IMG/VR virus record: IMGVR_UViG_2974574300_000001
Location: 1 to 64,000 of that record
Origin: a virus
Lineage: Duplodnaviria; Heunggongvirae; Uroviricota; Caudoviricetes
DNA: 64,000 bases
Direction: 5' to 3' (one strand)
Part shown: positions 12,540 through 61,326 of the stretch, in pieces
Layout of the letters: each line of letters opens with the position of its first letter
Position numbering within the stretch: position 1 is the stretch's first letter
Program-made: the position numbers and the translations under genes
Notes under the pieces: generated by a model
Databases searched by the model: none
Told to the model about the DNA's origin: nothing
What the model saw: the letters and a program-made list of their open reading frames with translations, nothing else

Positions 12540-13616
12540 ATGTTGACTAATTCTGAAAAAAGCAGATTTTTCCTTGCTGACCTGACTGGTGAAGTCCAGT
12601 CTATCCCAAATACTTATGGGTATATTTCCAACTTAGGTCTGTTCCGTTCAGCACCAATCACCCAAACTACTTTCCTTATGGACTTGACTGATTGGGATGT
12701 TAGCTTGCTTGATGCGGTAGACCGTGATAGCCGTAAAGCAGAGACTAGCGCACCTGAGCGTGTTCGTCAAATCAGCTTCCCAATGATGTATTTCAAAGAA
12801 GTTGAAAGCATTACTCCTGATGAGATTCAGGGTGTACGTCAGCCAGGCACTGCAAACGAACTGACTACTGAAGCTGTAGTACGTGCTAAGAAGCTGATGA
12901 AGATTCGTACCAAGTTCGATATTACTCGTGAGTTCCTGTTTATGCAAGCTCTGAAGGGTAAAGTTGTCGATGCTCGTGGTACTCTGTACGCTGACCTGTA
13001 CAAGCAGTTCGACGTTGAGAAGAAGACTGTTTACTTCGACCTTGACAATCCTAATGCTGACATCGACGCTTCTATCGAAGAACTGCGTATGCACATGGAA
13101 GACGAAGCTAAGACTGGCACTGTAATCAACGGTGAAGAAATTCACGTAGTTGTTGACCGTGTATTCTTCAGCAAACTGGTTAAGCATCCTAAGATTCGTG
13201 ACGCTTATCTTGCACAGCAGACTCCACTGGCTTGGCAACAGATTACTGGTTCTCTGAGAACTGGTGGTACTGACGGCGTTCAGGCTCATATGAACACCTT
13301 CTACTACGGTGGTGTTAAGTTTGTCCAGTACAACGGTAAGTTCAAAGACAAGCGTGGTAAGGTTCACACTCTGGTGAGCATTGATAGTGTAGCAGCAACT
13401 GTTGGTGTTGGTCATGCCTTCCCTAACGTATCTATGCTGGGTGAAGCTAACAACATCTTCGAAGTGGCATATGGCCCATGTCCTAAGATGGGTTACGCAA
13501 ATACACTTGGTCAGGAACTGTACGTATTCGAATACGAAAAGACCGTGACGAAGGTATTGACTTCGAAGCTCACTCTTACATGCTGCCATACTGCACTCGT
13601 CCTCAGTTGCTGGTAG
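12540..13616 (+). CDS. major capsid protein (putative)
   Basis: 358 aa ORF after protease/scaffold, strong RBS, high codon-usage regularity; assignment by position. Confidence 0.6.
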   Translation: MLTNSEKSRFFLADLTGEVQSIPNTYGYISNLGLFRSAPITQTTFLMDLTDWDVSLLDAVDRDSRKAETSAPERVRQISFPMMYFKEVESITPDEIQGVRQPGTANELTTEAVVRAKKLMKIRTKFDITREFLFMQALKGKVVDARGTLYADLYKQFDVEKKTVYFDLDNPNADIDASIEELRMHMEDEAKTGTVINGEEIHVVVDRVFFSKLVKHPKIRDAYLAQQTPLAWQQITGSLRTGGTDGVQAHMNTFYYGGVKFVQYNGKFKDKRGKVHTLVSIDSVAATVGVGHAFPNVSMLGEANNIFEVAYGPCPKMGYANTLGQELYVFEYEKTVTKVLTSKLTLTCCHTALVLSCW

Positions 13617-13661
13617 ATGTTCGCGCTGACGCTAAAGGTAGCTAATAAACTTAGGAGGGTT

Positions 13662-14114
13662 ATGAATGTGTTATACAGCGACCCAGCCAATAACCCTCTT
13701 GATAGAGTAAGAATCCTCTGCACAGACACTAATAATGATGAAATTCTTATTGAGCAGTCTGTGCTAGAGTGGTTCTATCTAGAATCTGGAAAGGATGAAA
13801 AGAAAGCAGCCATCAAAGCTCTTAAATATTTACTCTTTCAAGTAGCCAAGATGGGAGATGAGAAGGTTGGTGGTGTTTATTTACGTAACTCTTCCAGATT
13901 CAAGTCTCTGAAAGCTGTTTATGACGACCTTGTTAAAAGCTCTGTTTCAGGACTACCCTATGCAGGTGGTATTAATCAGTGTGATATTGACATGCGTCGT
14001 CAGAATCCTTGCTCTGTCAAGAAATACACAGAATATGGTGATGCTGCCAGATACGAAGGCAGAGATTACTGCAACCGTGTTAATGGCGTATTTATTATCG
14101 AGCGAGATGAATAA
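13662..14114 (+). CDS. hypothetical protein (head-tail region)
   Basis: ORF trimmed to ATG with AGGAGG RBS. Confidence 0.45.
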   Translation: MNVLYSDPANNPLDRVRILCTDTNNDEILIEQSVLEWFYLESGKDEKKAAIKALKYLLFQVAKMGDEKVGGVYLRNSSRFKSLKAVYDDLVKSSVSGLPYAGGINQCDIDMRRQNPCSVKKYTEYGDAARYEGRDYCNRVNGVFIIERDE

Positions 14115-36500: not shown

Positions 36501-37016
36501 TCAACTTAGTTTTGCAAACTCTCCGTGGAGTTTAATAGCAGCTTCACAGTAAGCTTTATGGGCTTCTTCTTCCGTTGTGTATGTTCCTATATGTATAGTC
36601 TTGCCATTATGGTTAATCTGGGCTATCCACTTACCAGACTTGCTTCTACTTGTACCTTTTAAGTTTTTTGATGTTCTGGGTTGTCTCCTATTAGACATGT
36701 TCTGCTCTTTTGTGGCCTCTCTTAGATTGTCCCAAGCGTTATTCAAACCATCTCCATCTTTGTGGTCAATGTGTTTATCAGGCCACTTACCTGTCATCCA
36801 GAACCAAGCAATTCGGTGATTACCTGTCCTGTATCCTAAAATCTGTGTGTGCATATACACACCAGACCTTGTGCGCTTAATTGCTCCGGCTTGGCTTCCA
36901 ATGACCACCCTACTACTATGTGGAGGTCTCCCAATCCATGTTAAGACCCCTGTTTCGGGGTCATAATCTAACCAAGACTTTAACTGTTCATGTGTGAATC
37001 CACAATCTCTCATCAA
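36501..37016 (-). CDS. HNH homing endonuclease with AP2-like DNA-binding domain
   Basis: HIDHKDGDGLNNAWDNLREAT HNH motif and C-terminal GKWIAQI...GTYTTEEEAHKAY AP2-like domain; paralogs at 47411 and 60835. Confidence 0.75.
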   Translation of the reverse strand: MMRDCGFTHEQLKSWLDYDPETGVLTWIGRPPHSSRVVIGSQAGAIKRTRSGVYMHTQILGYRTGNHRIAWFWMTGKWPDKHIDHKDGDGLNNAWDNLREATKEQNMSNRRQPRTSKNLKGTSRSKSGKWIAQINHNGKTIHIGTYTTEEEAHKAYCEAAIKLHGEFAKLS

Positions 37017-37567
37017 TGTACCTCATACCAGCTCTTACCAACTTTACCAGTACCAGTTACAAGCGTTTCCTCCTTAAGACCTAAGTTTCTTGATGCCTGA
37101 CCATACATCCAGTCAATTACTGCTTTAACATCCTGTGTCATCTCTTCTGGGCACTCCCAACTATTCTCGTCGTGGTATGCTAAAAGCAATCTAGCACCAA
37201 TAGCTGGTTTTCGACCATTCAGCTTTGTAAGACCCTCTTCACAAGCCCTTCTACAAGCAAGGTTGATAGCTTCATTCTGAACCTGACTTTCCGAACCCAT
37301 GAGCAAGTAATTTAAAAGTTTGTGCGGAGATTTACACCACAACCATGCACCTGCTACCTTTACAAAACCACCCTTAGAGATTGCAGCAGTCTTACCAAAC
37401 ACCTCTTCAAGAGCCTTCTTAGTGGCTTTGAAGTCTGCTTCCAAATTATCTATCAACTTTTTAATCTTAGGAAGGCGTACAAAGTAAGTTTGCTTAGTTA
37501 AAGCACCCTCTTCAGTAGTTGCAGCTTTAATCGTCTTAGCAAACTTCTCGTCACCTGCCCCAAACAA
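37013..37567 (-). CDS. DNA polymerase (family A, T7-like), 3' exon
   Basis: begins with FGAGDEK continuing motif B; contains motif C LLAYHDE. Confidence 0.8.
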   Translation of the reverse strand: MFGAGDEKFAKTIKAATTEEGALTKQTYFVRLPKIKKLIDNLEADFKATKKALEEVFGKTAAISKGGFVKVAGAWLWCKSPHKLLNYLLMGSESQVQNEAINLACRRACEEGLTKLNGRKPAIGARLLLAYHDENSWECPEEMTQDVKAVIDWMYGQASRNLGLKEETLVTGTGKVGKSWYEVH

Positions 37568-45460: not shown

Positions 45461-46324
45461 ATGTCTAAAGTTGTTAAAATGAAAGCTCCGGTAGAGAAGT
45501 ACAACGGTACTGAACGTCAAACTCTGCGTTACCTGCTGAAAGATGTCTGGTTTTATTACCTGAACACTTCACCACGTCCGGGAAAAGGTAAGTCTATTGA
45601 TAAGAAATTCCCAGGAAAAGACTGTAACTACAGCGTATCAATTCTGGCAGAAGACGGTAACAAACTGTTTAAAGAGTTTACTAAGTCTAAGAAAAATCCA
45701 GAAGGCTGGGATAAAGTTACTACTGAAGCAGTTGATGCAGATGACTTCGAAGAGAAGTTTGGTTGTAAACCACCTTTTGAAGCAGACACTTACTACATCT
45801 TGAAAGTAAGTCGTGCAGCAGCTTATAAAGATGGTGCTGTATGGACAGCTAAACAGTCATTCCCTGTTATGCTTATTGAAGAAGTAAATGGTAAGCGTGT
45901 AGCTGTTAAACAGCCGATGAAGAAAATCAAAGCTCAAGCATCTGATAAACATGAAGATGACAAGAACTATGATGTAATTCATCCAGATATTGCAGTTGGT
46001 AACGGTTCTTTTGGTAGTGTGATTCTTTCTACTCACTTCTACACTTTTGAGAACAATGTTCTGACAAAACCTATTCAGGAACAGTTTATCATTGATACTC
46101 TTGTACCTTACACTGGTGGTAACGGTGCTAATGGTGAACCTGAACTTGATGAAGATGAACTGGCTATGCTTGGTCTTGATGGTGTTGAAGATAACGGTGA
46201 AATCACTGAAGAAGACGCAACAGACCATAAACCTTCGAATGCTTCTGATGATGGCGATGGCGATGACGAAGACTTGCCAGACCCAGATGACGAAGAAGAT
46301 GAAGACTTCGATACAGAAGACTAA
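45461..46324 (+). CDS. single-stranded DNA-binding protein (gp2.5-like, putative)
   Basis: highly acidic C-terminal tail DDGDGDDEDLPDPDDEEDEDFDTED; located in replication module. Confidence 0.5.
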   Translation: MSKVVKMKAPVEKYNGTERQTLRYLLKDVWFYYLNTSPRPGKGKSIDKKFPGKDCNYSVSILAEDGNKLFKEFTKSKKNPEGWDKVTTEAVDADDFEEKFGCKPPFEADTYYILKVSRAAAYKDGAVWTAKQSFPVMLIEEVNGKRVAVKQPMKKIKAQASDKHEDDKNYDVIHPDIAVGNGSFGSVILSTHFYTFENNVLTKPIQEQFIIDTLVPYTGGNGANGEPELDEDELAMLGLDGVEDNGEITEEDATDHKPSNASDDGDGDDEDLPDPDDEEDEDFDTED

Positions 46325-46386: not shown

Positions 46387-47433
46387 ATGGAGAAGTACAC
46401 ATTAACAAAACTTCCCGATTCAGTTACACATGTTTTTATTGACTCTGACAGCATTGCCTATAAAGGTGCTTGTGTAGTTGAGAAAGCAAAATATAAATAC
46501 GTCAATAAACTCACAGCAGAAGAATCTGAACCATTTGACAATGCGAAAGATGCTGCAAGATGGTTAGCAGACCAGAGAATCCTTGTGGAAGAACTTGGCC
46601 TGACATTTGATGAAGATGAATGGGAAAGACAGACTTGGAAAGAAGCTAAGAGTGAGAAAGAAGCTATCATGGCGACTCAACAGGTGCTTCAGGAATGGCT
46701 TAAGGTTGTTGGGAAAGAGAGAACTTGGGTAGGTTATTTAACAGAGAAAGGTGTGCATAAACATAAAGACATTAAAGGTCTTGAGCACCAATATCAAGGT
46801 AACCGCAAAGATGCTGTCACACCAACACACTTAGTTGCTTGTCGTGAGTATCTTCTGTCAAGACCAGAGTTCAAATTGATTCTTGATGGATTTGAAGCTG
46901 ACTCTATCGTTATTGCTAAAGCTGAAAAAATGGGAAAAAAGGCTGCCTTAATGAGTATTGATAAAGACCTTCGCCAAGCTGAAGGGACTTACTGCATTGA
47001 TATGACCTATGAAAAGTCACCTTTGATTTTCATTGCTGACAACAACGTAGGTGAAATTTGGGATTGCCCAATAAAATCTACACCAAAAGCTAAGAAGACA
47101 GTCGGGGTAGGTTTTAAATTTCTTTGCTATCAAGCCGTGGCTGGTGATAATGCGGATAATTATTTTGGCTTAAAGGGTGTTGGCAAGGTTACTATAATGA
47201 AAGCCCTTGAAGGTAAAACCACCTACAAAGAGTGTCTTGATGCAATTTATGAGCTTTATGCTAAGAAAGAGTCATATACTTATGTCTCGTGGGATGGTCA
47301 AACAATTACCAGAACACCTTTAGAGTTAATGCAACAACACTTTTTCTTAGCTTATCAGGAAAGAAATAAGAAAGACGATTTCACTTTTGATAAGTATGGA
47401 TGGACACCAAATGTTAACCCAACAAACTCTTAA
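46387..47433 (+). CDS. 5'-3' exonuclease / flap endonuclease
   Basis: PIN-like acidic residues (FIDSDSIAY, IDKD) and H3TH motif GDNADNYFGLKGVGKVT. Confidence 0.7.
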   Translation: MEKYTLTKLPDSVTHVFIDSDSIAYKGACVVEKAKYKYVNKLTAEESEPFDNAKDAARWLADQRILVEELGLTFDEDEWERQTWKEAKSEKEAIMATQQVLQEWLKVVGKERTWVGYLTEKGVHKHKDIKGLEHQYQGNRKDAVTPTHLVACREYLLSRPEFKLILDGFEADSIVIAKAEKMGKKAALMSIDKDLRQAEGTYCIDMTYEKSPLIFIADNNVGEIWDCPIKSTPKAKKTVGVGFKFLCYQAVAGDNADNYFGLKGVGKVTIMKALEGKTTYKECLDAIYELYAKKESYTYVSWDGQTITRTPLELMQQHFFLAYQERNKKDDFTFDKYGWTPNVNPTNS

Positions 47434-47910
47434 AGAATACCTACACTATGACCCGAAACAGGGGTCTTTACTTGGTTAGTTGATAGAAAAGGTAAGGCCA
47501 AAGCTGGCTCAGTAGCAGGTTTTAAACACCATAGCGGTTATATCTATATAAAACTCTTCGGAAAAAGATATGCAGCACACAGGCTGGCATTCTTGTATAT
47601 GAAAGGATACCTCCCAAAATTTGTTGACCACAAGAATTGTATCAGATACGACAACTGGTTCGACAATTTGAGAGAGTGTAGCAGGTCAGACAACAACTGT
47701 AATGCAGTCAAAAGAAGAGATAATAAGTCTGGTGTGAAGGGTGTATATTACCACAAGCAAAGAGGTAGATGGGCTGCACAAGTTAAGCATAATAAAGTTT
47801 GCTACCATCTAGGTCTATTTGACTCTGTTGCTGAGGCTGAAGAAGTTGTCAAAAAGAAAAGAGAAGAACTTCATAGAGAGTTTACAAATCACGGAGAAGC
47901 TCATGAATGA
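47411..47910 (+). pseudogene. HNH-AP2 homing endonuclease gene disrupted by frameshift
   Basis: frame A MLTQQTLKEYLHYD then frame B PETGVFTWLVDRKGK...VDHKNCIRYDNWFDNLRE...GVKGVYY; junction at C-run GACCCG near 47450. Confidence 0.55.
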
Positions 47911-48407
47911 TTAAAGTTAAAGGTTTTGGGAGTTGTCCAACTTATGGACATTGGATTTCACTATGTGGTGAAGTTGACCCAGCAAAGCACTTTGGTTTTG
48001 TCTACCTAGTGTACTGCAAAAAGACTGGACAGTACTATTTGGGTAAAAAACAGCTTAACAGTGTGACCAAAAGAAAAGTTGCTGGTAAGACTCGGAAGAA
48101 GATAGTCACTAAGGAAAGTGATTGGATGACTTATGAGACTTCTTCTGAGTATATCAAAAAAGATATTGAAAGTTTTGGAAAAGAATTTTTTGACTTTTAC
48201 ATTATCCAAACCTACTACACAAAAGGTGGTCTAGTTTATGGTGAAGCAAACCTTCAACATAAGTTCGATGTAATGACAAAAAGGATTGACTCGAAGCTCA
48301 GACTCTTCTACAATGCCAATATTGCAGCAATTAAGTTTATTACCAAAGAAACTTATGAAGATGCTGAAAAAAGAATCCATAAGGTAATGAAAGTAAATTG
48401 TGCTTGA
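47907..48407 (+). CDS. GIY-YIG endonuclease-like protein
   Basis: FGFVYLVYCKKTGQYYLGKK resembles GIY-(10)-YIG motif. Confidence 0.45.
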   Translation: MIKVKGFGSCPTYGHWISLCGEVDPAKHFGFVYLVYCKKTGQYYLGKKQLNSVTKRKVAGKTRKKIVTKESDWMTYETSSEYIKKDIESFGKEFFDFYIIQTYYTKGGLVYGEANLQHKFDVMTKRIDSKLRLFYNANIAAIKFITKETYEDAEKRIHKVMKVNCA

Positions 48408-60834: not shown

Positions 60835-61326
60835 ATGAATAAGGGTTATTTTGAAAGATACCTAATATATGAACCAGATACAGGTTTATTAATTTGGAGA
60901 GTAACCCTTTGCAGTACCGCTATTGCTGGTAATGTGGCTGGCACAAGGTCTAAGAAGGGTTATATCCAAGTCCAGATAAATAAGAAGAGGTACTATGCAC
61001 ATAATATTGCATGGATTATGTCTGGAGGTGAGATACCAAGTGGATATGAGATAGACCACATAGACCTTGATAAATCTAATAATAAGTTGGAGAATTTAAG
61101 ACTTAGCACAAAGTCACAAAATCAGAGGAATAGGGGTATATACAAGAATAATAAAACTGGTGTGAAGGGTGTAAGTTTTTGTAAACAAACAGGTCTTTAC
61201 AAAGCAAGAGTCATGCTTTACCATAAAGAATACTTTTGTGGAAGATTTAAAACGGTAGAAGAAGCAAAAGAAGCTGTAATTAAAAAGCGAATAGAACTTC
61301 ATGGTGAGTTTGCAAGACATAACTAA
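60835..61326 (+). CDS. HNH-AP2 homing endonuclease
   Basis: EIDHIDLDKSNNKLENLR HNH motif and C-terminal AP2-like GVKGV...EEAKEAV...LHGEFA. Confidence 0.75.
   Translation: MNKGYFERYLIYEPDTGLLIWRVTLCSTAIAGNVAGTRSKKGYIQVQINKKRYYAHNIAWIMSGGEIPSGYEIDHIDLDKSNNKLENLRLSTKSQNQRNRGIYKNNKTGVKGVSFCKQTGLYKARVMLYHKEYFCGRFKTVEEAKEAVIKKRIELHGEFARHN

Follow-up and report, generated by a model that had tools for sequence, protein, structure and literature searches.

Free-standing homing endonucleases of the T4 type (seg and mob) are intergenic cassettes near essential genes, with recombination boundaries at their edges. Proteins that combine an HNH nuclease with an AP2 DNA-binding domain are recognised as a family of homing endonucleases (Magnani et al. 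2004, as cited in PMC10448857), one that includes IPA-HNH genes in the Vibrio phage ICP1. Genes of this family are reported to mark recombination boundaries and, in isolates, to carry frameshifts frequently, and in ICP1 gp115–gp116 the HNH and AP2 parts are split by a frameshift, which has been taken as the mark of an inactivated homing endonuclease gene (PMC10448857). The Felix O1 genome contains six HNH endonuclease genes (PMC3185647). Felix O1 ORF106 (NP_944978.1) and its orthologs in Mushroom, PMBT20, VSe11 and other phages lie between an exonuclease gene and a GIY-YIG gene, the same position as that of the locus described here.

The window, that is, the whole 64,000-nt stretch analysed (positions 1 to 64,000 of IMG/VR record IMGVR_UViG_2974574300_000001), was compared with known phages. 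A 1.5-kb query around the locus returned 247 phage records, essentially all Felixounavirus, with a top identity of 98.1–98.2%, and a 24-kb query returned the Salmonella phage PMBT20 and VSe102 at ~97% identity. Felixounavirus comprises Felix O1-like myoviruses that infect Salmonella, E. coli and Shigella. On these matches the window is a Felixounavirus genome, and it is a distinct member of the genus, because no record identical to it was present among the phage records matched.

By homology, the gene at 47411–47910 (plus strand, as are all features of this locus given below) is a free-standing HNH-AP2 homing endonuclease gene of the Felix O1 ORF106 type ("type A"), and thus an already known element. 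Unlike ORF106, however, it is without one C and its ORF is split, and its first 33 nt, together with the exonuclease gene, resemble those of E. coli phages. The sequence-only reading had placed the N-terminus and the remainder of the protein in different frames, and the translations agree. The 5′ fragment as written (47411–47479) consists of an ATG, 22 codons (MLTQQTLKEYLHYDPKQGSLLG), of which only the first 14 represent the true N-terminus, and a TAG at 47477–47479. In the frame one base back, a TGA at 47449–47451 is followed, from the CCC at 47452, by PETGVFTWLVDRKGK and so on to a TGA at 47908–47910. This −1-frame remainder (47452–47910; PETGVFTW...HGEAHE) holds 152 codons plus the stop, and restoring one C gives a single ORF of 166 aa. 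As written, the uninterrupted ORF of an HNH-AP2 enzyme is missing; since translation from the ATG at 47411 stops after 22 codons, neither the HNH nuclease nor the AP2 DNA-binding domain could be made. The rest of the gene is, on alignment, intact and identical to functional-looking relatives.

Profile searches with the repaired protein bear out the assignment to the HNH-AP2 family that had been made from the letters. The HNH_3 nuclease domain (PF13392; 47569–47697, residues 54–96, with the VDH...N...N motif inside) scored 45 bits against a Pfam cut-off of 24.8, and D73, H74, N82, N86, N95 and N98 of the HNH motif were invariant among the five homologs aligned. The putative AP2-type DNA-binding domain (PF00847; 47728–47838, residues 107–143) scored 31.2 bits, just under the Pfam cut-off of 33.3 (E = 2.7e-7). 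PF00847 is listed in precomputed Pfam assignments for a 98%-identical cluster (P0001), and one of the two paralogs in the window (36504–37016) passes the AP2 cut-off with 38.1 bits. The full length of the repaired protein matched PHROG 99, "HNH endonuclease" (E = 3.9e-74), and 1246 homologs were found at E ≤ 1e-20, most of them with both Pfam domains. Only one change, Y10H, separates the repaired protein from that of Felix O1 (99% identity); the repaired protein is 58% identical to the alternative allele (that of pinkbiff) and 37–40% identical to the two paralogs. Like the ICP1 members of the family, it has an N-terminal HNH and a probable C-terminal AP2 domain in ~165 aa, and its gene is free-standing beside essential DNA-metabolism genes and variably present among close relatives. 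Whereas the ICP1 proteins need profile-profile searches (PMC10448857), the HNH domain of the window matches Pfam HNH_3 directly; and in contrast to gp115–gp116, the apparent break comes before both domains.

Alignment of the junctions with two empty-site genomes delimited the HNH cassette at about 47389–47902, where ~514 nt stand in place of the ~24 nt (AAGAAATATAATTGGGAGCCGTGT) of the HNH-less relatives LinBro and phiWec172. The upstream neighbour is a 5′–3′ exonuclease gene (46387–47433), whose last 23 nt are shared with the beginning of the HNH gene and whose C-terminal 14 codons are supplied by the cassette and differ from those of the HNH-less form. At 46250–46255, within the ORF that precedes the exonuclease gene, GATGGC is duplicated in tandem and in frame in the window. 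The downstream neighbour is a SegE-like GIY-YIG homing endonuclease gene (47907–48407; Pfam PF19835, E = 1.2e-26), whose ATG overlaps the HNH stop (ATGAATGA) and which has its own GGAG at 47893–47896, six bases before the ATG. Its orthologs are labelled "NAD synthetase" in many relatives, the Felix O1 RefSeq record included, and this label is apparently a propagated misannotation.

The allelic states of the site were surveyed with a single query made up of 600 nt from either flank, and the span between the flanks was measured in related genomes. A span of 2219 nt, with a type A HNH gene and the GIY-YIG gene, was found in Felix O1, PMBT20, adrianh and others; one of 2210 nt, with a type B HNH gene and the GIY-YIG gene, in pinkbiff, VpaE1, FSL SP-012 and others; and one of 1725 nt, with the GIY-YIG gene only, in LinBro, phiWec172, REP11/12, tootiki, Meda and many others. 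The HNH gene is thus polymorphic in presence at a fixed site among close relatives, and the GIY-YIG gene was present in all sampled genomes with both flanks joined (loci L009–L015). The type A (166 aa) and type B (163 aa) alleles encode 58% identical proteins at one site, and the first 66 nt of their ORFs match nearly exactly, after which nucleotide identity drops to ~60%. Like seg and mob of T4, the cassette is intergenic, has essential neighbours and shows a recombination boundary at its edge; unlike them, it pairs another nuclease with another DNA-binding domain and occurs as two HNH alleles with a common 66-nt 5′ end. The locus appears to behave as expected of a free-standing homing endonuclease gene, and the recombination boundary at the cassette edge would be the sole, indirect sign of cleavage or homing.

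The break itself lies at the CCC run at 47452–47454, which is CCCC in the relatives, in agreement with the earlier proposal that one C had been lost near 47450. The window reads GACCCGAA at 47450–47457, and Felix O1, Mushroom and FG1m read GACCCCGAA in the nucleotide alignment; in the longer context, TATGACCCGAAAC stands against TATGACCCCGAAAC in the same three phages. The paralogs that had been called intact, at 36501–37016 (minus strand) and 60835–61326, are so, and read DYDPETGVLTW and IYEPDTGLLIW across the shift point, which includes the DPETGVLTW and EPDTGLLIW quoted for them. The proposed nucleotide-level comparison of the paralogs points to the same base: the first of them carries CCCC in an identical 23-nt patch (36943–36965, minus strand; counterpart 47447–47468). 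From 47452 to 47910 the window is 100% identical to Felix O1, Mushroom and ST11, and all five genomes aligned agree throughout the stretch between the shift and the stop except for FG1m, which has its own A5-to-A4 deletion and hence a different frameshift within the same HNH-AP2 gene. The sequence-only reading had offered a decaying endonuclease or a homopolymer error. Both alternatives remain, but "decaying" finds no support beyond the one lesion, as there are 0 substitutions relative to Felix O1 over 458 nt and no further disabling or unconstrained changes. Since the gene downstream of the shift is identical to that of Felix O1, it bears no sign of long-term decay.

The two alleles of the run were counted with 32- and 33-mers, every 28-base seed being forced to span the C run. 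CCCC was found in 121 phage records (132 places), at 10 places in eight IMG/VR contigs and in three metagenome contigs (JGI/ENA), whereas CCC was found in a single phage record (ST11) and in none of the IMG/VR contigs, metagenome contigs or GTDB genomes, the last of which were scanned for the CCC allele alone. The search for independent occurrences of CCC in these three collections was thus negative. On these counts the lesion sets the window apart from more than 120 relatives by one specific base and is not a chance pattern. The exception, ST11 (MF370225.1), has rIIA, the tail fibre, NrdG and NadV genes in pieces and four pseudo-tRNAs, and relative to PMBT20 it shows ~20 uncompensated 1-nt deletions in short homopolymers, another C4-to-C3 among them. 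Its CCC allele is best explained by these many deletions; ST11 is not a trustworthy witness, and its frameshifts should not be taken as biology. An ST11-like donor as the origin of the CCC allele was also considered and rejected: the nearest 1 kb has no discriminating sites, and at the next four on the right the window agrees with PMBT20 and not with ST11. A 103-aa truncated HNH product occurs in only three NCBI records, namely two UNVERIFIED, error-rich drafts and FG1m, and exact-protein look-up found it in no Logan or ENA assembly. The same look-up of a 105-aa HNH remnant and of the truncated head protein described below found neither on record.

To judge the accuracy of the assembly, the whole window was aligned to PMBT20 and every indel was listed. 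Nearly all indels were compensated pairs in divergent stretches, intergenic, or common to ST11, and only two were unique, uncompensated and located in conserved genes. One was the HNH lesion and the other an A5-to-A4 change at 13537–13541, which shifts the major head protein gene (12540–13616; PHROG 29). As a result, the conserved C-terminal ~30 residues, which form part of the family profile, are replaced, and the original frame is open to the normal stop at 13643–13645. A viable phage with such a head protein seems unlikely, so that at least one homopolymer under-call is probable in the record. The head-gene run is A5 in 158 phage records and A4 in four, two of them UNVERIFIED drafts and the others CL1 and C600M2, which carry the A4 on a different haplotype; either the run is miscalled repeatedly or the A4 is a genuine variant that recurs. 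Among homopolymers of at least 5 nt, only 2–3 of ~186 comparable runs differ in length from PMBT20, the longest run in the window being 6 nt, and the assembly appears otherwise accurate in homopolymers. At 13678/13679, just past the start of the gene that follows the head gene, PMBT20 has an extra G that leads to another start codon; the window and ST11 are without this G.

The lesion also coincides with a change of parentage. From ~39 kb to 47443 the window diverges from the Felix O1 group by 2–4.7%, and likewise in the 3.4 kb before the junction; then comes the missing C at 47452, and from 47453 to 48172 there are 0 mismatches to this group in 720 nt, the next difference being at 48173. On the left, the haplotype is the one found in E. 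coli phages, and it covers the exonuclease gene and the first 33 nt of the HNH gene. A Logan contig (L016, from ERR2241665), retrieved by exact look-up of the exonuclease protein, shows 100% identity to the window over 47080–47475 apart from its CCCC, and it continues into a type B HNH gene. The contigs that encode the exact exonuclease protein do not come from the same phage as the window, as they differ at synonymous sites. On these matches the window is a mosaic of an L016-like left arm and a Felix O1-like right arm, with the switch confined to 47444–47475. These 32 nt are common to types A and B, and the missing C is the sole difference from both parental types within them. The lesion at the junction could be a scar of repair or recombination, or its position could be a coincidence; the overlap was spotted post hoc.

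Could the missing C be an error of the record and not of the phage? From the sequence alone, a real mutation and an assembly error are inseparable, and the estimated rates of both are similar, each ~1–3% for the HNH-AP2 gene. Our preferred reading, with a probability of about 0.55, is a homopolymer under-call in sequencing or assembly, in which case the phage itself would carry an intact and presumably active endonuclease. The lack of any substitution after the shift fits a recent or an artefactual lesion, as do the 121 CCCC records against one from the error-rich ST11 and the absence of CCC from the IMG/VR, metagenome and genome collections. A miscall in particular is favoured by the restriction of the truncated product to three records, of which two are UNVERIFIED drafts, and by the second unique homopolymer deletion of this assembly, in the head gene. 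On the other hand, this deletion may not be a clean indicator of error, because CL1 and C600M2 share the A4 on another haplotype; the assembly is otherwise clean and a C4 run is a short target; a random miscall would rarely land within the 32-nt crossover patch; and phage isolates commonly carry homing endonuclease genes with frameshifts (PMC10448857), FG1m bearing another frameshift in this very gene.

A genuine, very recent 1-nt deletion, which would leave a newly dead homing endonuclease gene, is quite possible, at somewhat under even odds; such a lesion, we infer, would date back at most a few generations in the lineage. In its plain form it would be replication slippage in the C4 run. It could also be the scar of a recombination that swapped a type B cassette (or the left flank) for the Felix O1-type A form, with a crossover or repair-synthesis priming out of register in the C run (CCCC/GGGG) of the shared patch, although this version is unlikely. 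The general accuracy of homopolymers in the assembly argues for a genuine lesion, and so does its position, since the flank identities, to the type B-carrying L016 on the left and to the Felix O1 group on the right, bound the only 32 nt in which the switch is possible; the frameshifts and recombination boundaries typical of these genes (PMC10448857) are in keeping with it. Set against this are the lack of the allele in any independent assembly besides that of ST11, to which the discriminating sites on the right do not tie the window, the suspicious deletion that the essential head gene also holds, and the fact that its coincidence with the junction was recognised only post hoc. Homologous recombination, moreover, is normally accurate, which counts against a scar. 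A functional arrangement is highly improbable. It would consist of programmed −1 frameshifting at C-CCG, where a tRNA-Pro slipping from CCG back to CCC would give the exact wild-type sequence, or of an internal AP2 DNA-binding product of 103–105 aa devoid of nuclease activity, started at TTG 47593 or ATG 47599, and gene-calling programs predict the 103-aa ORF in three other records. Frameshifting was rejected, as the X XXY YYZ slippery heptamer is absent, the downstream 100 nt fold no better than shuffled sequence (z = −0.02) and the gene is a single frame in over 120 relatives; the internal starts are not preceded by a Shine-Dalgarno sequence, and their product would be without the first strand of the HNH_3 domain. 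Taken together, all explanations other than a miscall or a genuine lesion would account for a few chances in a hundred.

In kind the lesion is trivial, being a very recent mutation or a miscall in a known element. In annotation, the locus should carry the label of an HNH-AP2 homing endonuclease gene with a frameshift, as a pseudogene or as "sequence needs checking", in place of two hypothetical ORFs, and since the head gene holds a second homopolymer deletion, the record merits read-level checking before its frameshifts are read biologically. If the lesion is genuine, no HNH-AP2 protein would be made, and translation would end 430 nt before the GIY-YIG gene and not on its start codon; the GIY-YIG gene need not be affected, because its own GGAG precedes its ATG. 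If the lesion is a recombination scar, the incoming endonuclease would have been killed on arrival, the point of exchange would be pinned to 32 nt, which might also contain a cleavage or repair-initiation site, and cassette swapping alone could inactivate homing endonuclease genes. With two HNH alleles, an empty state, a near-universal GIY-YIG gene and a sharp crossover, the site offers a convenient natural system for homing endonuclease turnover.

Two observations concern the paralog at 36501–37016. Its protein is only 37% identical, yet it has the exact 23-nt patch (TATGACCCCGAAACAGGGGTCTT) in common with the Felix O1 form of the gene, and several relatives (HY02, dune, bumzen and SPJ41) have two copies of the 33-mer around this patch. 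The shared patch suggests gene conversion between endonuclease genes or a constrained 5′ element. This paralog also adjoins a DNA polymerase gene in pieces, of which a 184-aa C-terminal DNA_pol_A fragment (37013–37567) is followed directly by the HNH-AP2 paralog (together 36501–37567, minus strand); in PMBT20, an endonuclease VII gene lies between two polymerase CDSs. The polymerase region, from 36501 to ~40600, is the part of the window most divergent from its relatives, at up to 20% per kb.
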